Origin: Methanomassiliicoccales archaeon | Lineage (GTDB): Archaea > Thermoplasmatota > Thermoplasmata > Methanomassiliicoccales > UBA472 | Length of the DNA stretch: 64,000 nucleotides | Direction: 5' to 3' | NCBI GenBank assembly: GCA_036677555.1 | Contig: JAVBWG010000011.1 | Span: 87,497 to 151,496 of the forward strand | In this document: positions 242-56,537 of the stretch, one piece after another | Layout: every line of letters begins with the position of its first letter | Numbering within the stretch: position 1 is the stretch's first letter | The notes under the pieces: model-generated | Told to the model about the DNA's origin: nothing | Database searches by the model: none | The model's input: only the letters and a program-made list of their open reading frames with translations | Position numbers and translations under genes: made by a program

Positions 242-918
242 TGTTCTTCCACCCTGATTTCATCGGTTTTAGTACGGCTGGTAACTCTTCTTCCGTGTAG
301 AACGCGTTCGAAAACCACGGATTCTTTGGCATAATCTGGGTAGTTTTTATAGACGTATTTCATCAACCCTTTCGCGCCAAGCTGGTGCCAATCCAGTCTT
401 GCCTTTTGATATTCATGTTTTTGAACCTGACTAAGTTTATTGAAAGAGCTAGCAGCTAAATCGACACCTTCTTTAGTTAATTCGAAATATTCCCCAGATG
501 CCCCCTTCCTGCCCTCAGCGATGATTGCTCCAGCGTCTTCAAAACCAATAATCACATCCTCGATTCTCTCAGAATACGGACCGAACTTATAGGCTTTGAA
601 ACCAGGGTTTTCTGTAGGAATATTATGATCTGGAGCAAACTCGATGAATGTTAGGAACAACATCTTCTCGAAACAGGTTATTCCTACGACAGGCATCGGC
701 TGGGCATACATCAACGCTAAAACCCAATCATGGACGAACATGAACTGATGTTTCTCTGAGTAATCCCATAGCTTTTGAAGCTCACGCATTGGATAGATCA
801 CATATCCACAGACCTTGCATTGCAAGTAGTTGTACTCTATGCCATCTACCTTGCGATCAACACGCTCGTAATCGTGTTCGGCATGCTCGATCTTGTGTTT
901 TCTGGATTGCGCACTCAT
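238..918 (-). CDS. Putative antitoxin: YgiT/MqsA-like Zn-ribbon remnant + Panacea/SocA (DUF4065/YwgA-like) domain
   Basis: N-terminal CKVCG. Motifs 'GITCFEKMLFL' and 'FKAYKFGPYSERIED', followed by a wHTH-like 'YFELTKEG'. Confidence 0.6.
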   Translation of the reverse strand: MSAQSRKHKIEHAEHDYERVDRKVDGIEYNYLQCKVCGYVIYPMRELQKLWDYSEKHQFMFVHDWVLALMYAQPMPVVGITCFEKMLFLTFIEFAPDHNIPTENPGFKAYKFGPYSERIEDVIIGFEDAGAIIAEGRKGASGEYFELTKEGVDLAASSFNKLSQVQKHEYQKARLDWHQLGAKGLMKYVYKNYPDYAKESVVFERVLHGRRVTSRTKTDEIRVEEQ

Positions 919-1238
919 GTGATTGGTTCCAAGTGTGTTATCCTTAGGACACTTGCTCCATTTACATTATCTCTGTCTAACAATATACTAAAAATCTTCC
1001 TATCGCGTCTAGAGCAGACTTGCATTGTTGTTTTTCGGAAAGGTTTTCCTCCTGTTTTACCCTTCTTTTTTTTAGGACATTCTATTGTATCTTTCAACAT
1101 TCCGCAAACGGTTTCCGGGGACATTCTGAACTTAAATAAGTGAGCGGTCCCGGAATCACTCATATAGACTGGGAGAACCACCTTTTGATATTCGTAATCG
1201 CAAAATGGGTCATTACGACCCGTTAAATCCCCCACCAT
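915..1238 (-). CDS. Small basic protein, putative DUF4258/RelE-like RNase toxin
   Basis: 107 aa and Lys/Arg-rich. ATGA overlap with the downstream Zn-ribbon antitoxin-like gene. C-terminal beta strands ending 'VLRITH'. Confidence 0.45.
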   Translation of the reverse strand: MVGDLTGRNDPFCDYEYQKVVLPVYMSDSGTAHLFKFRMSPETVCGMLKDTIECPKKKKGKTGGKPFRKTTMQVCSRRDRKIFSILLDRDNVNGASVLRITHLEPIT

Positions 1239-1395
1239 GATGAATATTGAAATAAATTATTCCTAAATTAAACTATGCATCATTATAAAAAAAGGACCAT
1301 TACGATCTTATTGATAATTCTGAGTCTCTTAGAAATATCACAGCGGTAGTCGCATTTTTTAGCTCTAAATGAAGATATCCTCATAGGTAACAATT

Positions 1396-2949: not shown

Positions 2950-3003
2950 ATGATAAATAATTATGATTAAATGATATTATAGCTGTTTACGTAAGGGGAT
3001 AAA

Positions 3004-4605
3004 TTGGGATTGCTAAATTCGTTAAAGAAGGCGTTAAACCCCCAGAAGAGGGAAGAACGAAATAATGATGTACCCAGAATGGAACCGAATCATGAGATAA
3101 ACGGCAACAACACGGTCCCATATGGACCATCTATGCATATTCCCATCCCAGGTAACTTAGAAGATAATTCATTAACGAATTCTCTTACTTCATACCGCAC
3201 CGTGCACGGCATCCCCAAAGAAATCATCGATCTAATGTGGTTTAGAGATGGACCGATAAAGAATATTGATCGCGAGCCTCGATTTGTTCACAGGACCGAT
3301 CTATTCACAATCGAGGTTTCCTTTCTTGGTTCTATTGAACCCAGCGCCATAGGGATCGCTGATACAATCCATCCCCCGATGGATGGAATGGTGGTCGAGA
3401 GACCTCCCTATTACCCGACATACGAAAGAATGACCCCGGAACAAAGATGGGTGTATCTCAGTTGGTTGATCGATGTGGACGAGGAAGTCAACATTGGATA
3501 TGTCTTCGTTTTCTATTACGGCCTGGAGCGCCATCTTTTCCTCGGCCATTATGAAGCAGCGTTCGATATGATTCTGCGCCTCCGACGTGTGCACCGTAAT
3601 AGCTCTTTCCTCAGCTTTTCATCGAACGCATTAATCGCGACGTGTATCATCCATAACCGGCCAGACCTGTTCGTTCGATTCCTGCAGAGTCTTGTGGAAG
3701 TCACTGATGAAGATGTGAACACCATGTACCTCTTGGCGAAACGCTCATTGGGACTGGAGCTAGAACCAAAGGAGATAATGTTACTGGCTCGAGAAGTAGG
3801 GTTCACAAATAAACGGTATCTAGAAGGAGAAAGCGCACTTTTTGAGAACGAACTTAAGAGACGAATGGTGCAGGTACTGGGAAGAGAGACGATAGACCTG
3901 AGACCTTTGGCATTGAACGATACCCCGACCCACCCAGTGATGTTCTCAGCTAATTTTTCATTACCTGATAAACAACGTGTAGTCCATATCCCCGATCTGA
4001 GTCAGAATATGGCGTTTCGTGCATTGGTGTATCGGCTCCTCTTGGACACCCATGATGTTGTTAAGGAAAGAGTGAAGGAATCGAGAAAGGCTGAAAAATC
4101 TAGTGATATACAAATGGACAATGAGTCTGAATTGCCGATTCCATGTCCGTACTGTAACAACCCAACCAAACCTCCCAAGACTAAGAGGGTTTGCCCATCA
4201 TGCAAAAAGATCATTGTTGCTCGGACTGATCCCGATTCAAAAAAGAGGGTTTTCGTTACCGAAGAAGGAGCTGCAAGATTAGATGCTAGAAAGAAGGACC
4301 TGCAAGTCATCAGGTTTGCCGTCAAGTGTATGTGGCCTTTTGGGATGACAGCTGAGCAGTTGGAAGGTATGACCGGGGAGATGCGGGATAAAGCTCCTTG
4401 CACCGTTAACGATGCAGTTTGGAAAATTGTCAATACGAGTATGCAGAAATGGGAAGCAGAAGGTACGATACCGTCTCAATATTGTTATTTAGCAATGGCT
4501 AACTTTTTAGAGTTTGAAGGAAAGGATAAGAGCGAGATGATGGCGAAATATCAGGAAGAGGATAAGAAGGAGTTGGAGAAAAGGTATAGAAATTTTAACA
4601 CATAG
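3004..4605 (+). CDS. TerB N-terminal (TerB-N) domain protein with a C-terminal zinc ribbon
   Basis: 'YYPTYERMTPEQRWVYLSWL...IGYVFVFYYGLERHL' is the TerB-N signature. CPYC-x12-CPSC Zn ribbon. Confidence 0.8.
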   Translation: MGLLNSLKKALNPQKREERNNDVPRMEPNHEINGNNTVPYGPSMHIPIPGNLEDNSLTNSLTSYRTVHGIPKEIIDLMWFRDGPIKNIDREPRFVHRTDLFTIEVSFLGSIEPSAIGIADTIHPPMDGMVVERPPYYPTYERMTPEQRWVYLSWLIDVDEEVNIGYVFVFYYGLERHLFLGHYEAAFDMILRLRRVHRNSSFLSFSSNALIATCIIHNRPDLFVRFLQSLVEVTDEDVNTMYLLAKRSLGLELEPKEIMLLAREVGFTNKRYLEGESALFENELKRRMVQVLGRETIDLRPLALNDTPTHPVMFSANFSLPDKQRVVHIPDLSQNMAFRALVYRLLLDTHDVVKERVKESRKAEKSSDIQMDNESELPIPCPYCNNPTKPPKTKRVCPSCKKIIVARTDPDSKKRVFVTEEGAARLDARKKDLQVIRFAVKCMWPFGMTAEQLEGMTGEMRDKAPCTVNDAVWKIVNTSMQKWEAEGTIPSQYCYLAMANFLEFEGKDKSEMMAKYQEEDKKELEKRYRNFNT

Positions 4606-4899
4606 CTGATGAATAATAGGTGCTCGGGCGGAACTGATTAGTGAGTCATTTTGAGTGTCTTTCATTTACTGTGAATCACTATCGTTTTTTAGCGTAAATC
4701 CATTCTATTGGTTCAGTAATCTCTCTGACTTGCATTTAGTGTGATCATCGCTCGTTATAAATATTAAAACACTGGCCTTTCATTTATTCAGTGATTTATG
4801 ACTGAAGATTCGCATATAAATTATATATGGAAATGAGTGAGAAAACATCGCTAAGAGGTTTATATCAATATCAATATATGATGGAAATTGGTGGGAAGT

Positions 4900-5652
4900 A
4901 TGACAACTCAGCAATACCTGGAACAGGTGCTTGCCAAGTATAATCTCAGCAGCGCTCAGGAACAATCATTAAAGAATAAACGAATGCGCGTTGAAGAATT
5001 TCTTCAGAAGAGATATCCGTCCAAGATCAGGAGCTTTTACTACTCGGGGTCCTATGCCAAGGATACGGCAATCAATCTGAAGTACGATCTAGACCTCTGC
5101 ATTTACTTCAAGCATAATGCCTTCCAGACCCTGGCTGAGATGTATAACTCGGTTTATGAGAACCTTAAGTGTATGGATCAAGTGAATAAACAGCGGGTCT
5201 CCATCCGCATGCCCTCGGGGAAGGAGTCCATAGACGTGGTCCCGGCAAGGTGTATTGACGATACTTCTGACTACGCCAATCTCTATGTGACAACTGGCAG
5301 TCAAATCCAGACCAATATCAAGAAGCACAAGGAGTACATTAGTCAAAGCGGTTGTCGTCCGATAATTAAACTGATGAAAGTATGGAAAATTGAACACGGC
5401 ATACATTACAAGTCGTTTGCCCTAGAGTTACTGACCATTCGAGCCTTGGATGGCTTTAAGGACCCTGATTATGGAGAGCGGTTCGTCCATGTTCTTAAGT
5501 TTATAAGGGACAATGTTGAAAATGTCCGCCTTATTGATCCGGCGAACCAAAGCAATAATGTGGCAGACCTCATCAGTGTCAATGACAAGCTAAATATGAA
5601 AAATCAGGCAGCGGCCTCCCTGCAACAGACGTGGGAGCAAGTAATCTCATGA
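4900..5652 (+). CDS. cGAS/DncV-like nucleotidyltransferase (CD-NTase, SMODS), CBASS cyclase
   Basis: 'SGSYAKDTAI...DLDL' pol-beta NTase motif, third Asp in 'IDVVPA', 'IKLMKVWK', 'KSFALELL' and 'DPAN..NNV'. Coupled to NucC. Start is ATG 4900 (alternative TTG 4888). Confidence 0.9.
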   Translation: MTTQQYLEQVLAKYNLSSAQEQSLKNKRMRVEEFLQKRYPSKIRSFYYSGSYAKDTAINLKYDLDLCIYFKHNAFQTLAEMYNSVYENLKCMDQVNKQRVSIRMPSGKESIDVVPARCIDDTSDYANLYVTTGSQIQTNIKKHKEYISQSGCRPIIKLMKVWKIEHGIHYKSFALELLTIRALDGFKDPDYGERFVHVLKFIRDNVENVRLIDPANQSNNVADLISVNDKLNMKNQAAASLQQTWEQVIS

Positions 5653-6392
5653 GGTCAATGGCCCGCGAGCAAGACCCTCGGAAACTTTTCGCAGGATTGC
5701 AGGAGGAGATGCGTTCCACACTTGCCGCGGGAAAAACGATAGATCATCCGGGAGCCAAGGGAAATGACTCGGAGATGAAATGGGTTGAATGGTTGCAGCA
5801 ATATCTACCCAAGCGATACAGTGCCAGCAAAGCGTTCGTTCTCGACTCACAAGGGGGTTTGAGCCATGAGATCGACATAGTGATTTACGATCGCCAATAC
5901 TCACCCTTCTTATTCTTCCAGAAGGGGGCGTGCTATGTTCCTGCCGAGAGCGTGTACGCAGTTTTGGAGATCAAACAGGAGCTGAACCGGCGCCACATCA
6001 ATTATGCGAAACAGAAGGTAAAGTCAGTAAGGTCGCTGCATCGGACCAGCGCCGATATCGTCCACGCGGGCGGCCGCCTTGACCCCAGGCCACCGATACC
6101 GATACTCTCTGGGATACTGACTTATGAGAGCGGGTGGGCCGATCCCATAGGGGTAGACCTAAAGAGATCGCTGAAGTGTCCGGACGAGCTGGAACGCATA
6201 GATATGGGGTGTTCCATATGTAATGGGTCATTCGAGGCGGCCTATGATACTGCTGGTAATGCTACCTTAACTATTGCGGAGCGGGAGAGCGGGCTAATAA
6301 TATTCTTCCTTAGAATGCTATCAAGACTTCAAAAGGTAGGAACGGTCCCAGCAATGGACATAGACCAATACCTTAGGATGATCAAACCATAA
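5649..6392 (+). CDS. nucC: NucC-family cyclic-oligonucleotide-activated endonuclease (CBASS effector)
   Basis: 'HPGAKGNDSE..W...L..YLPKRY', 'IDIVIYDRQYSPFLF', 'PAESVYAVLEIKQEL', 'LQKVGTVPAMD'. ATG 5649 overlaps the cyclase stop (ATGA). Confidence 0.92.
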   Translation: MRSMAREQDPRKLFAGLQEEMRSTLAAGKTIDHPGAKGNDSEMKWVEWLQQYLPKRYSASKAFVLDSQGGLSHEIDIVIYDRQYSPFLFFQKGACYVPAESVYAVLEIKQELNRRHINYAKQKVKSVRSLHRTSADIVHAGGRLDPRPPIPILSGILTYESGWADPIGVDLKRSLKCPDELERIDMGCSICNGSFEAAYDTAGNATLTIAERESGLIIFFLRMLSRLQKVGTVPAMDIDQYLRMIKP

Positions 6393-6597
6393 TGAGGCTT
6401 CCGAGTCACATCCTTCAGAAAGTCGAGTGGGTGTTTAAAACCTGCCGTGGAGGGAGAGATACCAATAAGATATTAAAAAAATTGAATTGATTAGCTTCAA
6501 ATGCCACTTCACTGATTTTTTCTTAATCAATGAATCGAACTTGAGTTATTATAAAAATTGCGATATCATTATTATCAGGTCTGAATAATCAAGTTTA

Positions 6598-6966
6598 ATG
6601 CATATGTCCCAAGAAACCGCCAATGCCTTCTTCAGTTCAATTTCGATAATTGAAGGTGTTTTTTTCGCATTCTTGGTTTCATTTATTATGTATAATATTC
6701 AAGAAATGAAAAGTTATAACGAATGTATAATAACAAAAATTGGTTTAAATTTACTACATTTTATTGTATTTGCCGCAATCCTATATGCACAGATGATCCT
6801 CTTCTTATGGTCATTACTGGAAGTTGAATCATCCGGATTCGAATTCGATTACTCCACATCAATAATGTACGTATCCATTATTATATCAATGGTCGTATTA
6901 ATAATAGTAATGATTAGAGATTATAACAAGCATAGGAGGTGGAAAAATCGATACGGCTCAAGCTAA
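6598..6966 (+). CDS. Small multi-TM membrane protein
   Basis: About 3 hydrophobic segments; very AT-rich. Confidence 0.65.
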   Translation: MHMSQETANAFFSSISIIEGVFFAFLVSFIMYNIQEMKSYNECIITKIGLNLLHFIVFAAILYAQMILFLWSLLEVESSGFEFDYSTSIMYVSIIISMVVLIIVMIRDYNKHRRWKNRYGSS

Positions 6967-7378
6967 TGTCTTTTTTTCAACACTCGCTCAATTGTCTGGA
7001 ACGCTCTCAATAATCTTTTTTACTATATGGACATACTTTTATGACAAAGAAAAATATGTTGTTGGATATAAATTAATTATTACGAAAAGAATGAAAAAAT
7101 GGTTATTGATGTTATTTTTCATTCAGCTTATTATCTGTGTCACTTCTTTGATTTCAATTCTCTTTCAGCAATCGATTGGTGATTATTCGGAAATAATCGG
7201 AAAAATTCTACTATTCGCATCTTTTGCTGTAATCATATCTATTTTATTACTTGCAACATATAATTTGGATGAATCAAATTCAATTGATTCACTAGCATCT
7301 GCTCAAAATAATTATGTTCTAAGCATGGTAGAATCTGTGGAGGGACAGCTTGAAGAGATACGGAAAAATATGAAATGA
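6947..7378 (+). CDS. Small multi-TM membrane protein, probable paralog of the preceding gene (start uncertain: ATC 6947 or TTG 6992)
   Basis: The frame is open from 6914. 'DTAQANVFFSTLAQLSG' resembles 'SQETANAFFSSISIIEG' of the upstream gene. RBS AGGAGGT at 6934-6940. Confidence 0.6.
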   Translation: MDTAQANVFFSTLAQLSGTLSIIFFTIWTYFYDKEKYVVGYKLIITKRMKKWLLMLFFIQLIICVTSLISILFQQSIGDYSEIIGKILLFASFAVIISILLLATYNLDESNSIDSLASAQNNYVLSMVESVEGQLEEIRKNMK

Positions 7379-7500
7379 TACCAATTTTATCGAACATTTG
7401 GAATTCCATTAATATTCTCCGCGTAGAGAGCGTTTGAGATGCCATCAGACGTTCGATAAATGACTATGATAAGATAAATGATAAACGACAGAATCCCTTA

Positions 7501-8070
7501 ATGACAAATCGTGGGAGAATGAAGGATCATATCGATAATAATAGGTCGAAGCGGCCATTCGTCGAAGAAAGTCCCTCCATCGAACAACTATCCGAATTAA
7601 TTACTAAATACGGGAAACCTCGACCCCATCTGCGTACTTGGGACCTTTCGCATCTGGACGAGCCATTCTCCCCTCCTTCTTGCTCGGGGGAGGTCGTTCT
7701 GATCATTCGAACCGATGAGTCGAAGATAGTTTACGTTTCACGGCGCGGCCATCCGAAGGACTGGTTCTTACCTATGGGCAGGATACAGGTAGGCGAATCG
7801 GTAGAAATAGCAGCAATTCGGGAGACGTATGAGGAGACTGGTCTATCGATAGATGTCCTAGGGATCCCATTGTTGTATAAGGTGGATATCAGGTTTAAGG
7901 ATTGGACTCTTAGAAGATGGCATTTCATTGTTGCTGGAAAACCACATAGTAGTAGTCTTCAACCAATCGACAAAGAGGAGATAGAGAAAGCATTCTTCTT
8001 TCAGAACCGACCTCATAATAGCGATCCTTTCTTGAGGAGATGGTTGGTTGATATTCTTAACTGTGTATAA
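7501..8070 (+). CDS. Nudix hydrolase
   Basis: Nudix box G-x5-E-x7-RE-xx-EE-x-G-L ('GRIQVGESVEIAAIRETYEETGL'). Confidence 0.9.
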   Translation: MTNRGRMKDHIDNNRSKRPFVEESPSIEQLSELITKYGKPRPHLRTWDLSHLDEPFSPPSCSGEVVLIIRTDESKIVYVSRRGHPKDWFLPMGRIQVGESVEIAAIRETYEETGLSIDVLGIPLLYKVDIRFKDWTLRRWHFIVAGKPHSSSLQPIDKEEIEKAFFFQNRPHNSDPFLRRWLVDILNCV

Positions 8071-8313
8071 AGAAAATAGACGTTAGACGATTTGAGGTTG
8101 GCCAAGTCCGGAGAGACCATATTCATCACGAGATGGAGAGAATTTCTAAAAAAAAGTAAGTAGAGTATAGTCGAGATGATGAAAAAATGATAAATATCAA
8201 TTTATTTACCGAATTCGCTCATATGAGTGTTGAATGTTCTTTATTGAAATTGATCGTCATCTCACTCATTAATCGTGCTTCTCCCATTCTATGACAATAA
8301 AATTGACTAAAAC

Positions 8314-9036
8314 TTAGGCTTTCTGAACCTTAACAATACCAATCTCGTCCTTCAATTGCTCTTCAAGGATTAATATGATCATTGGCATCTCAATCCCCAG
8401 TTGTTTCTCGATGACGATGAAATTTAAAGTTGATTCATGAGCCTTCTTTGAACAAGCGAACAATTGGCCGACGATCTTCAGATCTCTGCTTCGATTTTCC
8501 TCACAGAGGGATGGGACGTTTTTCCTCAGCAGTTCATCAATCACCAAACGCAGACCTTCCTCCTCTTTTGTAAGGTCTGCAATAAGAATATCATCCATTT
8601 TTATAATTCCGAACGCGGCCTTATACCGCTCCTTAGACGACCTGAGGATATCATCATTGACCATTGCCAGAGATTGATATGGATGTGGAACATAGTACTT
8701 GACGAACTCTAAAAAGTCATCCATGCAATTGAAAAAACCTTCACTTCGGTATTTCGCCAATTTCCGTGCCCTGGTCATTACCTCAGAGATATCCTTCCAA
8801 TCAATCTCCTCTGGCAATTTATTCTTCTCTTTTGCTAATTCATTGAATACTTGTTGTACAAGGAATAATGCATATGCCGCTTTTTTCTGGACGACCTCAA
8901 ACGTTTCTAAGTGGACTTCAAATAAAATTTTTACCCGCGTATTCGGAATCTTATTGAGGGCTTCGTGCGCTCTCTTACTGTTGCGTTCGTTTAATATTCT
9001 CCCGAGAACGACCGTTGTATCGGGAGTATTATCCAT
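8314..9036 (-). CDS. Hypothetical protein, possible divergent PIN-domain nuclease with a helical insertion
   Basis: N-terminal 'PDTTVVLG' (PIN DT motif) and C-terminal 'RDLKIV...FIVIEKQL'. Confidence 0.5.
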   Translation of the reverse strand: MDNTPDTTVVLGRILNERNSKRAHEALNKIPNTRVKILFEVHLETFEVVQKKAAYALFLVQQVFNELAKEKNKLPEEIDWKDISEVMTRARKLAKYRSEGFFNCMDDFLEFVKYYVPHPYQSLAMVNDDILRSSKERYKAAFGIIKMDDILIADLTKEEEGLRLVIDELLRKNVPSLCEENRSRDLKIVGQLFACSKKAHESTLNFIVIEKQLGIEMPMIILILEEQLKDEIGIVKVQKA

Positions 9037-9045
9037 TATTAGCCC

Positions 9046-9774
9046 TCAAACATCAATCTCTTCTATAGGGTAATCGAGGGGCCCCCAGATAGGTGCACCG
9101 ATGTTTATTGTCGTCAAGAGTGTCAATGTATCTCTCAGCTCGGCCATACCTATCTTTTTTCGACGGAACGCCTCAATTCGCACGATGGCATAAAGAGAGA
9201 AAATTAAAACATCATTGATCAATTTCTCTTTTACTGACTCCTGAGCTCTTTCGATTTCATCCAAACCAGTTTTTATAATATTCATCGCTTCGAGCACGAT
9301 TGTTTGAGAGGTTAGTAAATACTCGAATTTTATCTGGTTCTCTGCCATTATTGTTTCCAATGCCAATTTGGAATGAAAATCAGATAAATTATTTGACATG
9401 ATATCCAAAGCCTCAGTCAGGTAGCGAATCTTTGCGTTTATCGACAGCGTATTGTATTGATTTTGGATTAAGTCGAGGGTCTTTCCCAAATTACCCACGT
9501 CTGCTATCCGCGAGTTATACTCCTTCATTCGCTCAAGAGTCACCCTCGCTGAAAAAAGGTCGGTTATGGCATCCATGAATTTTTCTATCTCATCATATCC
9601 AATATCAGATATTCTCTTTAAATGATGCTTCAGAACGCCCCGTTCTTTTACTTCACCCTCAGGAATACCAGTTAAAGGTGCTTTAAGGGCCGCGATGGTG
9701 CCGAAGACGGTCTCGATATCACTGAACGCAGCAATCTCATGATATTCTGATTGAACTGCATCGGCTCCACTCAT
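9046..9774 (-). CDS. Hypothetical alpha-helical protein, co-transcribed with the PIN-like gene
   Basis: 242-aa ORF; 9-nt gap to the next gene with a GAGGG RBS-like sequence. Confidence 0.75.
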   Translation of the reverse strand: MSGADAVQSEYHEIAAFSDIETVFGTIAALKAPLTGIPEGEVKERGVLKHHLKRISDIGYDEIEKFMDAITDLFSARVTLERMKEYNSRIADVGNLGKTLDLIQNQYNTLSINAKIRYLTEALDIMSNNLSDFHSKLALETIMAENQIKFEYLLTSQTIVLEAMNIIKTGLDEIERAQESVKEKLINDVLIFSLYAIVRIEAFRRKKIGMAELRDTLTLLTTINIGAPIWGPLDYPIEEIDV

Positions 9775-9979
9775 CTCAACGACCGTTAGAACGAACGTTC
9801 TTCCGATTATAAATAATTGTTACTATTATTCAATATTTATATAATAAATTACGCAATAGATTGCACGCTCCCATCATTATAGAATTCAAATCTATGTGGC
9901 CATTGTATCTCACAACTATGTCCGGATGTTATGCGAGGGGTGCGGGAGACGGCTGAGCTGATCATGATCAATCATTGGG

Positions 9980-10169
9980 AACCTTGACGCTTTAACTAAT
10001 TTGTTGATTTGAAATCCATCCAAACCAGCATCCTGATGTTGTGCGCCGCGATCCTCGAACATACCTCGTTTTTCCTTCCCACGTCCGAACGACACTTTAT
10101 GCGGTGGCCGAACTGGCCACCGATTATGTTGAACGTCGTCTCAGCATGATTGGCAATTAGTTCGATCAT
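9980..10169 (-). pseudogene. IS5-family DDE transposase C-terminal remnant plus terminal-repeat remnant
   Basis: Minus strand 10154-9996 translates ANHAETTFNIIGGQFGHRIKCRSDVGRKNEVCSRIAAHNIRMLV..*, matching the 'E..F...K..FG..++.R.....NE......HNI' pattern. It is followed by TTAAAGCGTCAA. Confidence 0.75.
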
Positions 10170-10248
10170 CAGATTAGATGTCGGAATTATGATTCGAGGT
10201 AAAACGAGGTGCGATACAAGCTAACAATGTTCAATCTGTATCAACTAA

Positions 10249-10274
10249 CAGTGACCGGGTTGTCCCGGTCACTG
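10249..10274. repeat. Perfect 11-bp inverted repeat / hairpin
   Basis: CAGTGACCGGG-TTGT-CCCGGTCACTG. Confidence 0.85.
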
Positions 10275-10382
10275 CAATCTTGCAACAAGGCCTTTTAAAA
10301 TAAGATATTATTATTTTTTATAGTACAGATGGCCTTATTAATTAAAAATCTATTCAAATCAGAGACCCAGGGGGTGCGTGGA

Positions 10383-10967
10383 ATGAAAAGGAAGAGGGTA
10401 GCCATTGTTGCAGTGTGCGTTGTAGCGATCATTGTATTGGCGGCCATTTTCTTTAATACAAGACCTTCAGACGATCGTGACTATGAATCGGCATGGAAGA
10501 AAGATATCATCGCCAGCAACGTTCCAATCGTGCTTCTGGGTAACAGTAGTAACTCGAATGAAATAATCGAAGTATTAACGTTCGCTACCACGAACTTCAC
10601 TCAAACCAATACAATGGATGGTCTGCTATCCCAGATTACCAGCAACAATACGATCGTGATGATCGATGCTTTTTGGGCAGAGAGCCAGAACGAGAGCGAG
10701 CTTGTTTCCTCCATGAAAACGATTCTTGATCAAGGAATACCCATCCTGACCATCGGTGAGATGCTGGACACTGTGAACAAAACCGGATATGCGATGAGCT
10801 ACGCCACTGGGCCCAACGTGGTGATATACGGTCTTAAGATATGCGAAAACGGCATAACGGCTTGCTACAACGGTGGTGGATCGATCTATAATGAGCTCGA
10901 CCTGAAGGCTGCCTTGGCAGGCGCTAACAATTGGGCTCTAGATTGGGTGTGGGACGCTTCAATATGA
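10383..10967 (+). CDS. Exported / membrane-anchored hypothetical protein
   Basis: MKRKR followed by a hydrophobic signal or anchor; many N-x-S/T sequons. The ORF track start at 10329 is probably too long. Confidence 0.75.
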   Translation: MKRKRVAIVAVCVVAIIVLAAIFFNTRPSDDRDYESAWKKDIIASNVPIVLLGNSSNSNEIIEVLTFATTNFTQTNTMDGLLSQITSNNTIVMIDAFWAESQNESELVSSMKTILDQGIPILTIGEMLDTVNKTGYAMSYATGPNVVIYGLKICENGITACYNGGGSIYNELDLKAALAGANNWALDWVWDASI

Positions 10968-10970
10968 TCT

Positions 10971-11018
10971 GGCTTTGACGCTTAACTAACGATTCCCTCG
11001 GAAATGACGGGGAGCCAG
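10971..11018 (-). mobile_element. Second IS end remnant (terminal repeat + last ~10 transposase codons)
   Basis: GGCTTTGACGCTTAACTAA nearly repeats 9984-9999 (TTGACGCTTTAACTAA). A GGCTTTG terminus is reminiscent of IS903-group IS5 ends. Confidence 0.55.
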
Positions 11019-11163
11019 TCAATTTTCATCACTAAATAATATGAGGGATTTATTGAGTTTAGCTTCAATGATTAAATTATTTAACAAGATACATATCAAG
11101 TTATTTATGTAAATATATGAATTTTTTAATGCTCCTTAGTATTTATCTACACACAGTCATTGA

Positions 11164-11430
11164 TTGTTTGCAATGATACTCTGGGGAAGTATAACCGATG
11201 CTCTATTGATTACAACTGCATGGGTGATGAGATCTGTTAATGCGATCTCAGCTCAAGCGATGAGCACGTATAATGCATTAGGTTTAGTGAAGCCAACTAT
11301 TCCATTGGTAACAAGTTCTGCTGAAACTTCCAGCAACCCCATTATAGACTATCTGATCGTAGCCATAATCGCTGGGGTCGTTATTGGCATCGTATGGTTA
11401 ATTTTGAGGTCTAGGAAGAAACGAGTCTGA
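11164..11430 (+). CDS. Small protein or fragment with a C-terminal TM anchor and basic tail
   Basis: S/T-rich linker, TM helix and RSRKKRV tail, typical of the C-terminus of a surface protein; may be a remnant. Confidence 0.4.
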   Translation: MFAMILWGSITDALLITTAWVMRSVNAISAQAMSTYNALGLVKPTIPLVTSSAETSSNPIIDYLIVAIIAGVVIGIVWLILRSRKKRV

Positions 11431-11767
11431 TAGTATCGTGTTTAGCGTTACTATGAGCCTCAAATCACACAAGGGAGCCCTTAAAGCCATCGAGATGCCG
11501 CCTCATCCTCGATCCCCAGCGCGTTATAAGGTATTGAACTTCTGATATTTAGTTGCAAACTGCCAATCACGGATTATCTCGATATTTGGTATTGAATGGA
11601 CTGAACCTCGAATCTGCAACAGACTCGGGTTTATGCAAAATTATTAAATATCAACAACCCATTTTTCTACCCAAAGTTGAAATATAAGAAAAAATGTGAT
11701 AACACCGTTAATATTCGATGCTGGCTTTAATATTTTACTGGCAAAAATAACGGTAAATATGGGGTAG

Positions 11768-11785
11768 GAATCCCGGCGGGAGCAC
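11768..11785 (+). other. tRNA 3'-end fragment (T-arm 3' side + acceptor strand), probable attachment site, tRNA-Glu-like
   Basis: GAATCCCGGCGGGAGCA resembles the archaeal tRNA-Glu end (..TTCRAATCCCGGC[C/G]GGAGCA). It is followed by a T-rich tract, has no 5' tRNA half upstream, and sits exactly at the GC shift. Confidence 0.65.
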
Positions 11786-11902
11786 TCATTGCTCATTTTT
11801 TACACCGTTGCGATCGATATACCTTTTCGGCGTTCATCACCCAATAAGAAGCACGGAAAAACAATACGTGTTGAAGGCGTTATCGCCGGACGGGTGATCG
11901 GG

Positions 11903-12634
11903 ATGGATGGGTTGGTTATCGAAACGGACCGATTGACAAGGAACTTCGGCGATGTGGTGGCGGTCGATAAGGTCTCGTTCTCAGTGAACAGGGGCGAGAT
12001 ATTCGGTCTGCTTGGTCCAAACGGCGCGGGCAAGAGCACCCTGCTGAAGCTATTGACCGGGCAGCTGGACGCCACGTCCGGTTCGTGCACCGTGCTAGGA
12101 GCGGACCCCTTCAAAGACCCTCTTGCAGTCAAGCGAGGCATAGGCATCGTGCCGGAGATCGAATCCCCACCCTCGTTCCTTACAGGACGGGAGTACCTGC
12201 ACTTCATCGGCTTGGTCCGCGGGATCGGTGACATAAAGGAACGGACCGAGGAGTGGATAGAGCGAATGGACATGAAGGAAGTGGCGACCGTTCCTTGTAA
12301 GGACCTCTCCAAAGGGACCAGGCAGAAGCTGATGGTGGCCGCCGGACTGATCCACGAACCTCAACTTGTTTTCCTGGACGAGCCGTTCTCCGGTCTGGAC
12401 CCGCGATACCAGAAACTGGTACGCGAGTATCTCCAGGGGTATCTGGAACGGGGAGGCACGGTCTTCATGTGCACCCATATACTGGAGATCGCCGAGAAGA
12501 TGTGCACCCGCCTGGCCATCATCGATCGAGGAAGGATAGTCGCCATAGGCGCCCCCGGGGCGATCGGCAAAGATGGAGAAACCCTCGACCAGGCCTTCAT
12601 GAGGGTGACCGAGAGGCAGGGGAAAGAGGAATAA
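11903..12634 (+). CDS. ABC transporter ATP-binding protein
   Basis: Walker A GPNGAGKST, signature LSKGTRQK, Walker B LVFLDEP, H-loop. Confidence 0.95.
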   Translation: MDGLVIETDRLTRNFGDVVAVDKVSFSVNRGEIFGLLGPNGAGKSTLLKLLTGQLDATSGSCTVLGADPFKDPLAVKRGIGIVPEIESPPSFLTGREYLHFIGLVRGIGDIKERTEEWIERMDMKEVATVPCKDLSKGTRQKLMVAAGLIHEPQLVFLDEPFSGLDPRYQKLVREYLQGYLERGGTVFMCTHILEIAEKMCTRLAIIDRGRIVAIGAPGAIGKDGETLDQAFMRVTERQGKEE

Positions 12635-50931: not shown

Positions 50932-52179
50932 TTGATGGACAACGGGTCCCGCAGCAAGCTTCTGGAGGACCCGTACGTGAAGAGGGTTTGGGACCTGATA
51001 ATGGAGGAGCCGCTCTTCAGGAAGAGCCCGGAAGAGCTGGCCTCGCTCAGGGGATCGCTGCGCCGGGAATGCCTGCAGTTTTTTGCCAGGCACAGCCCTT
51101 ATTACGCTGACCTATTTGAACGGCTGGAGATCGACCCGGCCAAGGCCACCCTCCACGATATCGCGAAGTTGGCCATACCCTCGGACATGCTGCGCGGCGA
51201 CGGACAGAAGCGCTTCCTGATCCAGGATCTGGAGGAGGGCGGGGAGACCTTCTCATCCAGCGGCACCACCGGCAAGGACCCGGTACGCGTCTACCGCTCC
51301 CCAGTGGACCTGGCCATCATGCTCAAGGCCAACACCGACCTGTTCGAGCATGTGTATGGCGACGTGCTCAAGCAAGGAGAGGGCGTCGCCCTCTTCATGG
51401 CCGCCCCCGAGCTTCGCTACAAGCTCAGCTTCGTGGCCTTCGTGGACCTGACGCTGGATAATAAGGGCATAGAGCTGCTGTACGGAATGGACCTGGAGGA
51501 CAAATCGCAGGCGGGGACGCCTTGGCAGAAGCTCACCACCAACAAGGAGAACCTCCTGAAGTTCCTGAAATCCAAGAAGGAGCCGAAGCTGTTCTTCACT
51601 GCCCCGGCCGGGGTCCATATACTCGGGCAGAAGTTCGATGACATGGGCGTCGGAAAGAAGATGGCATACAAGCTGGCATCTGGAGCGCCGCCTATCAAGC
51701 TGGGAAAGGGAGGCATCATCGTTACCGGAGGGGGAAGCAAGGGCTTCGCCGACCTTCCGCCGTACCCGCAGCTGGTATCCAACGCCCAGAAGCATTTCGT
51801 CAGCAAGGACGCCGCGGGAAAGCATATCGACACCCCGTTCATGGACGTTCTGGGAATGACGGAGACGCTCACCGCCCTCATCGACCGTTACGGCGTTATG
51901 GACAAGGTGCCCCACCCGCTGGCCGAGGCGTTCCTGCTCGACCCCCTCACCTTCGAGCCGATCGAGGAGGAGGGGAGGGAGGGGATACTGGGCATATTCA
52001 ACCCGTTCACCACCTCCTGGCTGGAGGTTTTCTATCCGGGGGACATCATGACCTGGCATTCCTCGAAGGGATTCTACGGCAAGGAGTTCGTGTACAGGCG
52101 CCGGCTGAGCGTCAAGGAGGGTTGGGACCTGCAGCGGGCCTGCGGCGGCACCCTGGAAGAGATGATGACCAAGCAGTAG
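50932..52179 (+). CDS. LuxE/PaaK-like acyl-protein synthetase (adenylate-forming)
   Basis: P-loop 'FSSSGTTG', 'TGGGSKG', 'GMTE', 'GD', C-terminal 'RACGG'. Confidence 0.8.
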   Translation: MMDNGSRSKLLEDPYVKRVWDLIMEEPLFRKSPEELASLRGSLRRECLQFFARHSPYYADLFERLEIDPAKATLHDIAKLAIPSDMLRGDGQKRFLIQDLEEGGETFSSSGTTGKDPVRVYRSPVDLAIMLKANTDLFEHVYGDVLKQGEGVALFMAAPELRYKLSFVAFVDLTLDNKGIELLYGMDLEDKSQAGTPWQKLTTNKENLLKFLKSKKEPKLFFTAPAGVHILGQKFDDMGVGKKMAYKLASGAPPIKLGKGGIIVTGGGSKGFADLPPYPQLVSNAQKHFVSKDAAGKHIDTPFMDVLGMTETLTALIDRYGVMDKVPHPLAEAFLLDPLTFEPIEEEGREGILGIFNPFTTSWLEVFYPGDIMTWHSSKGFYGKEFVYRRRLSVKEGWDLQRACGGTLEEMMTKQ

Positions 52180-52217
52180 GCGCATGTTTATTTTCCTGAA
52201 AGGGCATCCAGAGGCCC

Positions 52218-53684
52218 ATGTGCCCAGCCCTGGCCCCCCTGCTGTTCGATCGCTCTCTGGAGACCGTGCCCTCTGCCGGCAATCCGGAGGTCCTTGAGCT
52301 CTCGCCTTCTGACCTGGGGGATCTGATCTCAAACGCCGGGAAGGTGCAGGCGGAACTGTCCTCGGTGCCTGTCGACGAGCGGCTGCAGGTCATCGAGCAC
52401 ATCGCCCGCAAATGGAAGGAGAAGCTGGACAACGGGGACTTTGAGGATCTGAAAAGGGAGATGTCCGCCTCCACCGGTTACTCGCCGGCGCTGATGGAGA
52501 CGGAGCTGTCCTTCGTCCCGGCGGTGCTGGGCGCTGCGAACATCCGCAAGAACCTGGACGCCTCGGTGCAGGGCGGAGCCGACGCGCTGCATAGGTTCGT
52601 GGAGGTGGAGGAGACGGAGATGTTCCGCCACGTGCCGGTCGGTCCGGTGCTGATAATCAGTTCCGGCAATTCCATCGTCCCCACGCTGATACCGACAGTG
52701 GTGTCCCTGGTCACTGGAAACCTGACCGTCCTCAAGCCCTCCATCGCCAACTACCGCGGCGTTTGCGAGGTGTTCAAGCTCCTGGCCGACGTGCCCGATT
52801 CCCGGGCCGCCCGGGCCATGCGTTCCGCTCTGGTGGTCTCGTACTTCGGCCACGGCTCGCCATCGCTTAAGCTGGCATTGGAGGAGCTGCCCCTGGGAAT
52901 GGTTAACTTCTGGGGCGCCGAACCGGCCAGGACCATCGTCGCCAACATGGTCGGGAAGAACCCCCATCACCCGCGCTTCTTCGTGAACGGCCCGTTCACC
53001 GGGATGGCGGTGATCGAGGAGGGGGTGGACCCGCTCCAGGCGGCGGACGATCTGGCCTTGGACGTTGTTCTTTACGATCAGCAGCTGTGCTCCTCGCCCA
53101 CCGCCGCCGTGTTCATCGGAAGTTACGAAAATGCCAAGGACTTTCTGAGGTCGGCGGGGGAGCGTCTGGACGAGGCGGGCGGCGAATTCCCGCTTCCCCC
53201 GGACCAGGACCGACTGTTCGTCCTCCAGGGTGCGCGCCGCTTCATACAGATGGACGGGGGGATGGTGCTCTCCTCGAGGAACCCTGAAAACCCATGGACC
53301 CTGGTGCTCTCCAAAGGACGCAGCTCGTTGGGCGGCCTCGCCGCGCAGTTCCCGGCCTTCAACCTCTTCGCCCGCCGGCGCTTCCTGGAGATCGTGGTCG
53401 TCCCGGACGCGGAGAGCGCGATGGACCTTTTGCGGTCATTGCCGGATCATCCGGCCTTCCAAGGCATCGACGGGGTGCAGAGCGTCGGATTGGCGGTGAC
53501 TGAGGGGTCCCGGGAACGCATCGTCTCGCTGCTCATCGGAGCTGGCGTGCACCGGATACTCCCCTTGGGGGACATGTTCATGCGGGGGGCGGTGGAACCG
53601 TATGATGGGGTAACCATGTCCTCGCTGTTCACCCGCATAGTGTACTGGCGCAAGGAGAACGCCTTACTGGAGGGGCAGTTTTGA
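52218..53684 (+). CDS. LuxC-like acyl-CoA/acyl-protein reductase (ALDH fold)
   Basis: 'ISSGNS', 'LKPS', 'FWG', catalytic Cys in 'YDQQLCSSP', 'GVHRI..LG.M', 'YDG'. Confidence 0.85.
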   Translation: MCPALAPLLFDRSLETVPSAGNPEVLELSPSDLGDLISNAGKVQAELSSVPVDERLQVIEHIARKWKEKLDNGDFEDLKREMSASTGYSPALMETELSFVPAVLGAANIRKNLDASVQGGADALHRFVEVEETEMFRHVPVGPVLIISSGNSIVPTLIPTVVSLVTGNLTVLKPSIANYRGVCEVFKLLADVPDSRAARAMRSALVVSYFGHGSPSLKLALEELPLGMVNFWGAEPARTIVANMVGKNPHHPRFFVNGPFTGMAVIEEGVDPLQAADDLALDVVLYDQQLCSSPTAAVFIGSYENAKDFLRSAGERLDEAGGEFPLPPDQDRLFVLQGARRFIQMDGGMVLSSRNPENPWTLVLSKGRSSLGGLAAQFPAFNLFARRRFLEIVVVPDAESAMDLLRSLPDHPAFQGIDGVQSVGLAVTEGSRERIVSLLIGAGVHRILPLGDMFMRGAVEPYDGVTMSSLFTRIVYWRKENALLEGQF

Positions 53685-54658
53685 AGGTTCTGGTGACCGG
53701 GGCCACCGGCTTCCTGGGCGGCCATCTGATCGAAGAGATGGCCAAAGGCCCCCACGTTCCCATCTGCGCCCACCGAAATGGCAGCGACACCGGGAAGCTG
53801 GACAGGCTAGGGCTGGAGAAGAGGGTCTTTGACCTTACAGACCACGGATCCATGCGCCGGGCGCTGGAGGGAGTGGACGCCGTGGTGCATCTGGCTGCCT
53901 ACTATACCTTTACCGGGAAGAAGGAGCTGTACGACAGGGTGAACGTGAGGGGCACGGCGGACCTGCTGAAAGCCTGCCAGGAGACTGGAGTAAGGCGCTT
54001 CATATATTGCAGCAGCACCGAGACCATGGGGCCAATAGCGTCACCGCCCGGAGATGAGGATTCCCCCCTGAACCCGCAGTACGAGTATGGGCGCTCCAAG
54101 GCCAGGGCGGAGGATCTGGTGAAGGCCTCCGGCCTCGACTGGACGATCCTCCGGCCGTCGGGCATATACGGGCCGAGCAACGTGGACGACGTGGCATACT
54201 ACTTCATCACCTCATTCAGGGGGTTCGCCTCCAAGTTCATCATCGGCTCGGGAAGGAACCTGATCCAGTTCGTGCACGTGAAGGATGTGGTGCAGGGGTT
54301 CGTAAAAGCATTGGACCGCCCGGCGTCCGTCGGCGGGACCTACATCATAACCCAGGCCAGGCCCTACACCTACGAGGAGGTGTATCGCGTCCTGGCGAAG
54401 ATATTTCAGAAGGGGGAGCCCCGCTGGAGATTGCCCAGGCCATTGGCCAAGCTGATGATGCTGCCCATCGAGGGTTTCTGCACCCTCGTCGGCAGGGAGA
54501 ACTTCCTGTACCGCCGGGAGACGGTGGAGAGCGTGACGAGCGACAGGGCCTTCAGGATCGACCGGGCCCGGACTGACCTCGGCTACGAGCCGGTCTACGA
54601 CCTACCGGAAGGAATGGCGGAGACCGTGGCCTGGTACCAGGAGAACGGCTACCTCTAG
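53681..54658 (+). CDS. NAD-dependent epimerase/dehydratase (3-beta-HSD-like extended SDR)
   Basis: TGATGFLG, 'YGRSKA', 'LRPSGIYGP'; TTGA overlap with the LuxC-like gene. Confidence 0.88.
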   Translation: MKVLVTGATGFLGGHLIEEMAKGPHVPICAHRNGSDTGKLDRLGLEKRVFDLTDHGSMRRALEGVDAVVHLAAYYTFTGKKELYDRVNVRGTADLLKACQETGVRRFIYCSSTETMGPIASPPGDEDSPLNPQYEYGRSKARAEDLVKASGLDWTILRPSGIYGPSNVDDVAYYFITSFRGFASKFIIGSGRNLIQFVHVKDVVQGFVKALDRPASVGGTYIITQARPYTYEEVYRVLAKIFQKGEPRWRLPRPLAKLMMLPIEGFCTLVGRENFLYRRETVESVTSDRAFRIDRARTDLGYEPVYDLPEGMAETVAWYQENGYL

Positions 54659-54660
54659 GC

Positions 54661-54672
54661 AACGGTTATATC
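54661..54672 (+). promoter_or_regulatory. BRE/TATA-like element upstream of the prenyltransferase gene
   Basis: AACGGTTATATC, identical to the element upstream of nadX. Confidence 0.5.
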
Positions 54673-54703
54673 CGCTTCCGGTTTTTACCGTCGCGGTGAA
54701 AGG

Positions 54704-55660
54704 TTGGAGAAGACGCTGTATCGCACTTTGCTCAACTTGCTGAGGATCAGCTACACCCTTCCGTTCGTCATGGCCTCGGTGACCGGGGCGGTCTTCGCCC
54801 TGACGGTGGGCAACGAATGGCTGATGGCCGTGCTGATCCCGTTGGACGTGTTCTTCTTCGCGCTGTTCGCCAACCTGAGCAACGATTACTACGATCACAG
54901 GAGCGGGACCGATGCCACCCGCTTCGATTTCATGACCCCGGAGCGCATGGAATCGATCAAGGAGCTGTACGACGAAAGGGTATACTGGGACGGCAACATC
55001 TTTGACAAGGGGGATGTCAGCGAGAGGACCGGCAAGATCGTTCTGGCCATGATCCTGGGACTGGCGGCCATCACCGCCGTACCGATCGTCCTCTACGGCG
55101 GCTGGCTGGTCATCGTCCTTGGCGCCATCGGATTGTTCCTGGCCTACTTCTACACCGCTCCCCCGCTGAACCTGGGCGCCCGAGGGCTGGGGGAGCTGGA
55201 CGTGGGGGTGTCCTTCTTCATGATGTCCTTCTTTACCTATTTCGTCATAAGCCCGGAATGGTCCTGGCAGATGTTCCTGATCGGGGTCATCATCGGAACC
55301 TCGGTCATGCTGATGCGATTCATAGACCAGATGTCAGGCTATGAGGCGCATGTCAAGGGCGGGGAGAGGGACTGGTGCGTGCGGTTGGGACTGGAGAAGG
55401 CGGTGTCGGCCGTCGGGATCATCCTGCTGGCCATACACGTCATGCACCTGGGCCTGGTGTACTTTCACCCGGTGTTCCTGGTCCTTCTGCTGACCGTGCC
55501 CATGGGCAGGAAGATAGTGAAGGGGCTTCACGACAAAGGGGATGACCTTCGCTTCATCAGACCTGCGCCGCAGATAGTCAAGATGGTGATTTTCAGCGAG
55601 CTGCTGATCATCATTTCGTTGACAGTCCAAAACGCCCTGCCATGGACATTATGGTGGTAA
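54704..55660 (+). CDS. UbiA-family prenyltransferase, MenA-like
   Basis: 'NLSNDYYDHRSGTD', 'YTAPPLNL..RGLGE', ~8 TM segments. Confidence 0.88.
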   Translation: MEKTLYRTLLNLLRISYTLPFVMASVTGAVFALTVGNEWLMAVLIPLDVFFFALFANLSNDYYDHRSGTDATRFDFMTPERMESIKELYDERVYWDGNIFDKGDVSERTGKIVLAMILGLAAITAVPIVLYGGWLVIVLGAIGLFLAYFYTAPPLNLGARGLGELDVGVSFFMMSFFTYFVISPEWSWQMFLIGVIIGTSVMLMRFIDQMSGYEAHVKGGERDWCVRLGLEKAVSAVGIILLAIHVMHLGLVYFHPVFLVLLLTVPMGRKIVKGLHDKGDDLRFIRPAPQIVKMVIFSELLIIISLTVQNALPWTLWW

Positions 55661-56537
55661 TGCTTCCCCTGGTGATAAGAGAGTACTCGCGGACGGCGTT
55701 GAAACCGCAGCGCTTGCACGATTCACCCTTCATGGGGCAGCCGTAGAGCTTGCTGCGGTCCGGCATGATGAACTCCGAGGCCCAGAAGGCGCATCGGCCG
55801 GAGTAGTCCTCCATCAGCAGCTCCTTGAGCGCCTTCCTGGAGTTCAGGATGGGATATCCCTCCTTCTTGAGCGCCACTATCTCCTGCACCACCTTGCGCT
55901 TATCCTCTATGCTCAGCACCTTGGCATCCGGCGGCGGGGTGAGGAAATTTATCATGAGTCCGTTGATGCGCGGGTTGTCCTTCACGATCTGCGCCGTCTC
56001 TCTGACGAGGTGCTTGTTATCGGGCATTACCACCATGTTGGCGAAGACGTTGGGATGATCGACCTTGGAGAGGTTCTCCATCATCTTGTCGAACACGCCC
56101 TCGCATCTTATCCGGTCATGCACTTCCCGCGGACCGTCCAGGGATACCGAGATGACATCGCTCTCCAGATAGAACACGTTCGTTCCGTTGGTGGTGTAAC
56201 CGGTGACGAAGAAACCGATGTCCTTCCCGGCCTTGATGAGGTCCAGGAGGGTCCGCTCGCCATCGCTCCAGTGGGTCGGCTCCCCTCCCTCGAAGAACAG
56301 CACCCGGGCACCGCGGGCATAGGAGGCCTTCATCTCCGCCACCGCATCGCCGTAGGATATCTTGTGCGGCTGCGGTATGGACGGCAGGTTCTCCGCTATA
56401 TGGCAGTGCTGGCAGCGCAGGTTGCACTGGTAGGTGATTATCATTGTGGTGGCCAGAGGTTTCTTGAACCCCAGCAGCTCCTTGAGGAACCAGATGCCGT
56501 AATAGGCGGTCTGGCCGACGGTCCTCGCGACGCCCAT
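55611..56537 (-). CDS. Radical SAM protein with a C-terminal Cys-rich (SPASM/twitch-like) region
   Basis: CNLRCQHC, 'GGEP', 'TTNGT', 'SLDG', C-terminal C..C..CxxC; start ATG 56537 after a GGGGTG RBS. Confidence 0.9.
   Translation of the reverse strand: MGVARTVGQTAYYGIWFLKELLGFKKPLATTMIITYQCNLRCQHCHIAENLPSIPQPHKISYGDAVAEMKASYARGARVLFFEGGEPTHWSDGERTLLDLIKAGKDIGFFVTGYTTNGTNVFYLESDVISVSLDGPREVHDRIRCEGVFDKMMENLSKVDHPNVFANMVVMPDNKHLVRETAQIVKDNPRINGLMINFLTPPPDAKVLSIEDKRKVVQEIVALKKEGYPILNSRKALKELLMEDYSGRCAFWASEFIMPDRSKLYGCPMKGESCKRCGFNAVREYSLITRGSITTIMSMAGRFGLSTK

Follow-up and report, generated by a model that had tools for sequence, protein, structure and literature searches.

Gene content of the locus

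A 64,000-nucleotide window of DNA from a Methanomassiliicoccales archaeon (contig JAVBWG010000011.1 of assembly GCA_036677555.1, positions 87,497 to 151,496 of the forward strand) contains five closely spaced genes between window positions 50932 and 56537. These encode a LuxE-like protein (P0001), a LuxC-like reductase (P0002), an extended short-chain dehydrogenase/reductase (SDR; P0003), a UbiA-fold membrane protein (P0004), and a radical S-adenosylmethionine (SAM) protein (P0005). A first-pass annotation of the sequence had treated them as a single biosynthetic cluster. We confirmed all five open reading frames at the positions it gave, and the gene identities that it assigned hold. The distribution of these genes, in contrast to that annotation, indicates that the locus is probably two independently inherited units that lie side by side: an acid-reducing trio (unit 1, P0001 to P0003) and a UbiA plus radical SAM pair (unit 2, P0004 and P0005). 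The features of the locus, in window coordinates, are as follows.

50932/50935-52179, + strand: LuxE-like protein P0001 (unit 1; 414 aa)
52141..52143, + strand: codon of Cys403 (in RACGG), the predicted acyl carrier; invariant in 72/72 aligned relatives
52218..53684, + strand: LuxC-like acyl-thioester reductase P0002 (unit 1; 488 aa), with matches to PF05893 and 7xc6_A
53088..53090, + strand: codon of Cys291 (in YDQQLCSSP), the predicted catalytic cysteine; kept in 60/60 full-length relatives
53681..54658, + strand: extended SDR P0003 (unit 1; 325 aa), with GxxGxxG, R32, and Y136xxxK140
54666-54671, + strand: putative TATA-like element TTATAT before the UbiA gene, by sequence match only
54704..55660, + strand: UbiA-fold membrane protein P0004 (unit 2; 318 aa), of a distinct clade and with the first Asp-rich motif intact
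55316..55366, + strand: rebuilt second motif of P0004, R205-x2-D208-x3-G212-x3-H216-x4-E221, placed by alignment with UBIAD1
55611..56537, - strand: radical SAM protein P0005 (unit 2; 308 aa), with CxxxCxxC and four invariant C-terminal cysteines

As the first-pass annotation had noted, the start of the SDR gene overlaps the stop of the LuxC-like gene in a TTGA (53681-53684). The gap from the SDR gene to the UbiA gene is 45 bp, and the UbiA and radical SAM genes are arranged tail to tail (convergently), with a 50-bp overlap at the UbiA 3′ end. The locus combines a putative luciferase-free LuxCE-type reductase accompanied by an SDR with a member of a UbiA clade that has a rebuilt motif and is tied to a radical SAM protein. 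A search of the open-access full-text literature found no description of the trio or of the pair; the available portion of PMC11948995 concerns a different archaeal fatty acyl-coenzyme A (CoA) reductase and makes no mention of Lux proteins.

Distribution of the trio and the pair

Occurrence of the genes was counted across 148 Methanomassiliicoccales genomes that were at least 90% complete. Of these, 21 have the LuxE-like gene and 62 have a member of the UbiA clade; the genomes with the radical SAM orthologue are those same 62. The pair is therefore gained or lost jointly, without exception, in this set, which makes it a compact and testable target. Both units were present in 18 genomes, the LuxE-like gene only in 3, the pair only in 44, and neither in 83. 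Outside family f7, the pair was found in 48 of 57 genomes (84%), versus 17 of the 20 (85%) that carry the LuxE-like gene; thus, the pair is not enriched in genomes with the LuxE-like gene. Within family f6, the UbiA gene is present in 19 of 24 genomes and the LuxE-like gene in 3 of 24, with zero overlap.

We assessed the context of the trio in the best 80 of the 91 genome loci where a relative of P0001 was found. All three genes were present in order in 66 of these loci; eight of the other 14 run into a contig edge, and in the remaining six the trio would fit but one or two of its genes are missing. Trio-bearing genomes are titled Methanomethylicales, Odinarchaeota, Nitrososphaeria, Brockarchaeota, Thermofilales, Zestosphaera, Bathyarchaeota, Methanofastidiosia, and Methanomassiliicoccales, and at the phylum level the gene order is kept under the titles Thermoproteota, Nitrososphaerota, Odinarchaeota, Brockarchaeota, Bathyarchaeota, and Thermoplasmatota. 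P0001 relatives outside Methanomassiliicoccales share 54 to 69% identity with it. A UbiA gene follows the trio in 18 of the 80 loci, 17 of them with Methanomassiliicoccales titles and one (L046) under another title and 93% identical. No further neighbor was common to the trio across lineages, as judged from the loci in other phyla.

Partial versions of unit 1 were also observed. Three loci (L042 in genome G018, L060, and L067) have the LuxE-like and LuxC-like genes with no adjacent SDR gene, and three others (L085, L092, and L113) have only the LuxE-like gene. Frameshifts or breaks occur in genes of both units in some metagenome-assembled genomes (L041, L057, L106, L114, and L121), and these may reflect either assembly error or decay.

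The pair was then searched for in 50 of the 62 trio-locus genomes where the UbiA gene was not seen adjoining the trio. Among those titled Methanomassiliicoccales, 7 of 8 have the pair elsewhere. No UbiA or radical SAM orthologue was found in any of the 42 titled otherwise, which gave three weak UbiA matches (1e-14 to 1e-16). The TATA-like element that the first-pass annotation had pointed out before the UbiA gene recurs in relatives: a TTA(T/A)AT sequence precedes the UbiA gene both with and without the trio, as in the trio-less relative L125. One genome (G006) retains an SDR remnant (residues 141 to 325, the 3′ half) before an intact pair. Because 44 of 62 UbiA genomes are without the LuxE-like gene, none of those 42 trio genomes has the pair, and the TATA-like element persists in the absence of the trio, a single five-gene pathway is unsupported. 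The trio and the pair are not co-conserved in relatives, and the single route proposed earlier, which ended in prenylation and a radical modification, is not borne out by this distribution.

Several observations weigh against two fully separate units. The trio lies directly upstream of the UbiA gene in 14 of the 18 genomes that have both units, and in one further genome a contig end interrupts the region. This adjacency is found in two families with different flanks, and the Methanomassiliicoccales LuxE-like proteins form one clade (Shimodaira-Hasegawa [SH] support, 95), which together suggest that the neighborhood is old. In addition, the genomes are kin rather than independent samples, and most are metagenome-assembled, as are those from which the absences come. 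The adjacency and the single clade would fit an optional coupling, in which the pair works alone and the trio's alcohol or aldehyde, where present, serves as an alternative UbiA acceptor that yields a variant product. The co-orientation of the adjacent units and the short gap between them at this locus favor such an arrangement. It is nonetheless improbable given the lack of enrichment, the mutual exclusion in family f6, the 42 pair-less trio genomes outside Methanomassiliicoccales, and the separate TATA-like element of the UbiA gene. An obligatory pathway (acid to aldehyde to alcohol, followed by prenylation and radical modification) could draw on the five genes found in order in 16 of the 80 loci, with four of them in 2 further loci truncated by a contig edge, but it is largely refuted by the distribution, in which those 44 pair genomes are without the LuxE-like gene, 3 of 21 LuxE-like genomes are without the pair, and few metagenome loci have a trio gene upstream (see below), and we give it almost no credence.

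Linkage of the UbiA and radical SAM genes extends well beyond these genomes. A metagenome scan that included distant UbiA members covered 80 of the 137 loci found. Where there was room, the radical SAM gene adjoins the UbiA gene in 72 of 74 loci (69 convergent and 3 co-oriented), and a trio gene lies upstream in 11 of 50. In three loci of family f6, genus g13 (L133, L136, and L138), the two genes of the pair point the same way and flank a ribulose-phosphate 3-epimerase gene, indicating that its linkage survived rearrangement. A convergent, overlapping pair (41% and 52% identity) also occurs at positions 8001-9882 of L173, where it lies among rpoD, dnaG, bL25, and glmU; these flanking genes identify L173 as bacterial. 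The proteins of this pair are on record on a 45-kb contig. The evidence for a bacterial copy consists of this one clear contig and a short second one (L172), and a misassembly could account for it. Convergent genes cannot share a transcript, and the pair is kept across such distance; we infer, therefore, that the two proteins share a function. No further gene was common to the surroundings of the pair across families, with 26 of 32 planned proteins scanned in one comparison. As a separate feature of the L173 contig, an archaeal-type N-glycosylase/DNA lyase gene (PRK01229, over the cut-off) overlaps the start of its pair.

A predicted acid-to-alcohol reductase

P0001 gave no Pfam match at an E value of 0.01, PF04443 included, and 2 of its 120 listed relatives carry this domain. 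The best solved relative of a profile built from 72 relatives was Photobacterium LuxE (7xc6_E), at a weak E value of 3e-4, and the language-model neighbors of P0001 are archaeal LuxE-domain (PF04443) clusters (score, 0.97). The predicted structure (mean predicted local distance difference test score [pLDDT], 86, with a disordered tail) matches PaaK-type adenylating enzymes (Z score, 21.5 to 26.1; root mean square deviation, 3.0 to 4.1 Å). The best structural matches are PaaK-family enzymes (PaaK1/2, BT_0428, NatL2, ClxA, and HCL) and the phenazine enzyme EhpF (PDB code 3HGU); they share 13 to 18% identity with P0001 and match it only to about residue 395, after which P0001 continues into a Cys tail. 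The model thus comprises an adenylation fold without the C-terminal subdomain. P0001 has an SSGTTG loop, K269, R389/R390, and Cys403 in the tail. K269, R389, and R390 are invariant and align with LuxE K238, R354, and R355 in the same weak alignment (E value, 3e-4). In PMC9157457, the defining traits of LuxE are the lack of a C-terminal subdomain, the presence of Cys364 in a flexible tail, and K238/R355. The fold matches listed for P0001 do not include LuxE 7xc6_E, which is not evidence for a different fold. The resemblance to LuxE must be set against the failure of P0001 to match the LuxE Pfam model and the identity of its best solved folds, which belong to CoA ligases and to enzymes that adenylate aryl acids. 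In the ESM Atlas, the P0001 family has as a neighbor an archaeal LuxE cluster of 170 members, which carries PF04443 in 96% and is found most often in Promethearchaeota. A search for PhzA/B (PF03284) in the genome gave no match, but the control also matched nowhere.

P0002 passes the PF05893 model (102.5 bits versus a cut-off of 21; E value, 3e-29) and matches LuxC (7xc6_A; E value, 3.5e-6), with C291 aligned to the YDQQAC cysteine; it falls far below the LuxC equivalog NF052251 (35.8 versus 750 bits). The LuxC catalytic residue is numbered Cys296 in PMC9157457 and is presumably the YDQQAC cysteine of 7xc6_A. P0003 carries the NADP-type fingerprint and catalytic YxxxK of extended SDRs (HpnA, SdmB, and OleD models), and R32, Y136, and K140 are present in 64/64 relatives. 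It scores below all NCBIfam cut-offs shown, and sugar dehydratases score almost equally. Its best solved relative is PDB code 3WJ7 (E value, 7e-27), which we take to be Gox2253. Gox2253 is termed an aldehyde reductase in the available text of bioRxiv 2026.10.06.757028.

The closest described system is the LuxC-LuxE pair of Photobacterium phosphoreum (PDB code 7XC6; PMC9157457, as far as its text is available). Both systems combine an adenylation enzyme that is without the C-terminal subdomain and has a flexible Cys tail and the K/RR residues with an aldehyde dehydrogenase-like reductase that has a YDQQxC cysteine, and in both the genes are adjacent. Unit 1, however, is remote in sequence (profile E value, 3e-4 for the LuxE-like protein; E value, 3.5e-6 for the LuxC-like protein), has an added SDR, is without luxAB and luxD, and occurs in anaerobic archaea. 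The absence of lux genes, remarked on earlier for the locus, extends to the 99.9%-complete genome, where neither luciferase (control positive in 9/14) nor LuxD (control positive in 1/14) was found.

Taken together, these conserved features make it likely that unit 1 is a CoA-free acid-to-alcohol reductase. The acid-to-aldehyde-to-alcohol chemistry first suggested for these three genes is supported by conservation of the predicted catalytic residues. By analogy with LuxCE, P0001 would use ATP to adenylate an acid and would then carry the acyl group on Cys403 of its tail. The acyl group would pass from the tail to Cys291 of P0002, P0002 would release an aldehyde with the help of NADPH, and P0003 would reduce this aldehyde to the alcohol. 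Such a route would need no CoA, acyl carrier protein, or LuxD. A medium- or long-chain aliphatic acid is our best guess for the substrate, with an aromatic acid a serious contender and some other acid the least plausible choice. If this assignment is correct, unit 1 would allow anaerobic archaea with isoprenoid membranes to convert an acid to an alcohol without CoA, and thermophiles that carry the trio could supply carboxylate reductases.

The UbiA and radical SAM pair and its host genome

P0004 matches PF01040 (E value, 6e-15) and is predicted to adopt the UbiA fold. Its best NCBIfam matches are MenA models, and it scores far below their cut-offs (TIGR00751, 35.2 versus 102.15; PRK06080, 64.7 versus 264); no match was obtained to the digeranylgeranylglyceryl phosphate (DGGGP) synthase models PRK12882-4. 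With the MenA/UBIAD1/chlorophyll synthase branch it shares the fold, an NxxNDYxDxxxGxD first motif, and a YT-PP loop. It differs from that branch in its rebuilt second motif, in scoring below all family cut-offs, in forming its own clade, and in the placement of its gene, which is tied to a radical SAM gene and not to men, mqn, or ubiE genes. In the second motif, DxxxD is replaced by GxxxH: the pattern R205-x2-D208-x3-G212-x3-H216-x4-E221 is kept in 74/74 relatives, and G212 and H216 align with D236 and D240 of UBIAD1. The first Asp-rich motif, R14, and Y150 are invariant in the same 74.

We compared 117 UbiA sequences, comprising 9 family members, 105 of 150 listed profile matches kept by length, and 3 paralogues. 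An Asp occupies the position of His216 in 97 of these, and a His occupies it in 19. In a FastTree tree, which contains no characterized references and shows no direction of transfer, 18 of the 19 His-bearing sequences form one branch (SH support, 99); P0443 shares the rebuilt motif yet falls outside this clade. Distant clade members include P0422 (source label Bacteroidales, unconfirmed), P0426, and P0434-P0436, and 26 representatives at 50% identity reach an E value of 1e-30 with the family. Among 151 genomes of the class, whole orthologues are confined to Methanomassiliicoccales, and the sole exception is a partial match in G115 (E value, 1e-50; residues 7 to 121). A search of 201 genomes from the class to which the Bathyarchaeota-titled genome G229 belongs did not turn up the clade.

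P0005 has a Radical_SAM Pfam match, a CxxxCxxC motif, and four invariant C-terminal cysteines (C249, C267, C274, and C277) of no assigned type. It shares the radical SAM core with the PTO1314 family (TIGR03961), which is among its best NCBIfam matches (50.4 versus 306 bits), and with HpnH-like proteins (TIGR03470; 37.8 versus 225 bits), for which no hopanoid context was seen. No B12-binding family was present among the 12 Pfam families matched by 56 P0005 members at an E value of ≤1.

On balance, we lean toward unit 2 making a prenyl-derived membrane compound in two steps, and its product is likely to be something other than menaquinone or a standard diether lipid. P0004 would bind an Mg-prenyl diphosphate through its intact first motif and ionize it, and its rebuilt second site (R/D/G/H/E) would accommodate an acceptor or metal not used by MenA. 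The role of P0005 would be either to produce this acceptor or to act on the prenylated product, through H-abstraction or addition of an adenosyl group. The unrecognized prenylated product predicted by the first-pass annotation is accordingly favored for the pair alone and not for the five genes together. The invariant change in P0004 sits at a site that characterized members need. Its hosts are methanogens, and both their membrane chemistry and the electron carrier that they may use invite further study; if unit 2 acts as proposed, its product could reveal new UbiA chemistry and possibly provide a biomarker.

The strongest competitor to this assignment is that P0004 is no longer a transferase and presents a prenyl diphosphate or lipid to the radical SAM enzyme, or hydrolyzes or cyclizes it. 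Both second-motif aspartates are replaced, and the gene co-occurs strictly with the radical SAM gene. However, the replacements are invariant polar residues (R, D, H, and E), as expected for a new active site, and the first motif, R14, and Y150 are retained. Chlorophyll synthase, which is an active enzyme, is also without the first of the two second-motif aspartates. The excerpted text of PMC4106721 points both ways. Mutation of the second-motif aspartates abolishes or nearly abolishes the activity of Escherichia coli MenA, and because MenA needs these residues, P0004 may not be a transferase. The second-motif aspartates bind the second Mg, and in AfUbiA their loss weakens binding of geranyl diphosphate only 21- to 45-fold. 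Overall, we consider loss of transferase activity unlikely, and a two-step route that includes prenylation is preferred.

A further possibility is that P0004 acts as a typical MenA, attaching a prenyl chain to scavenged naphthoate to give a postulated membrane electron carrier. In addition to its best NCBIfam matches, an orthologue (AGN26109.1) is listed in Table 6 of PMC4153887, a source available in part, as a second ubiA, encoding a 1,4-dihydroxy-2-naphthoate octaprenyltransferase for an unknown membrane carrier; no study of this orthologue was found in the open-access literature. Against this stand the separate clade and low MenA scores of P0004 and the content of the genome, which encodes four UbiA proteins besides P0004. 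One of these (L146, positions 672-2307, in G000:C12) is a better MenA-like candidate with an intact second motif, and its gene overlaps a UbiE/MenG methyltransferase gene; these two may possibly support quinone assembly from a scavenged head group. MqnA/D family proteins, MqnC, and MenB were not found over cut-off in the genome, the other men genes being outside the search. Moreover, the available text of PMC10673518 states that the Methanomassiliicoccales complex I homologue passes no electrons to a membrane-soluble carrier. An ordinary MenA is therefore a poor fit, and we regard it as quite improbable.

The link to butanetriol and pentanetriol lipids drawn earlier proved weak. These lipids are known from Methanomassiliicoccales (PMC10673518 and PMC13003381, in the parts available), and radical SAM and UbiA proteins would be suitable kinds of enzyme, but it is very improbable that the pair or trio builds the lipid backbone, given that P0005 has no B12-binding Pfam match; that the UbiA clade was not found in the 201 genomes of the class of G229, although Bathyarchaeia make butanetriol dibiphytanyl glycerol tetraethers (BDGT) according to excerpts of PMC13003381 and PMC12694404 (sampling of the producing genus is uncertain); that, suggestively, Table 6 of PMC4153887 gives one ubiA for the BDGT producer Methanomassiliicoccus luminyensis versus two for “Ca. 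M. intestinalis”; and that the pair also occurs in a bacterium (L173). The title of one paper attributes butanetriol lipids to backbone methylation, and B12-type lipid enzymes are the subject of bioRxiv 2025.10.20.683597, as its available text indicates.

More tentatively, both units can be joined in a broader scenario, which we consider possible without favoring it. The pair would be a self-contained pathway with new UbiA chemistry, in which His/Glu/Arg replaces the second Mg site, and would make an undescribed membrane molecule (a lipid modification or the postulated carrier “X”) in most free-living Methanomassiliicoccales; it would have moved as a unit between archaea and bacteria. The trio would be a CoA-free acid-to-alcohol reductase, undescribed in archaea, that can feed the pair in some lineages.

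The remaining UbiA proteins of the genome include one whose gene lies beside that for geranylgeranylglyceryl phosphate synthase; it scores 247 bits versus the DGGGP synthase cut-off of 296 and is probably the DGGGP synthase. Another (L147, positions 245-3072, in G000:C8) is a 554-aa membrane protein with a C-terminal UbiA domain, and its gene overlaps one for a putative geranylgeranyl reductase-like flavoprotein.

At the locus itself, the left flank holds a GrpB-domain gene and a putative ilvB, and the right flank holds a DUF5654 gene and a putative glyceraldehyde-3-phosphate dehydrogenase-like gene. The nearest named relatives of the locus proteins are from Methanomassiliicoccales. Metatranscriptome contigs gave short scattered pieces across several genes, too fragmentary for operon structure or expression, and a bacterial promoter and terminator scan, a type unsuited to an archaeon, gave chance-level results. 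Elsewhere in the window, positions 1-12000 have a GC content of 39 to 47%, versus approximately 60% in the rest, and are probably an acquired island. This region holds several orphan open reading frames and, at 4888-6392, a two-gene defense unit of the cyclic oligonucleotide-based antiphage signaling system (CBASS) type, in which an oligonucleotide cyclase (PDLC00803; E value, 8e-79) is followed by a NucC nuclease (E value, 4e-92).

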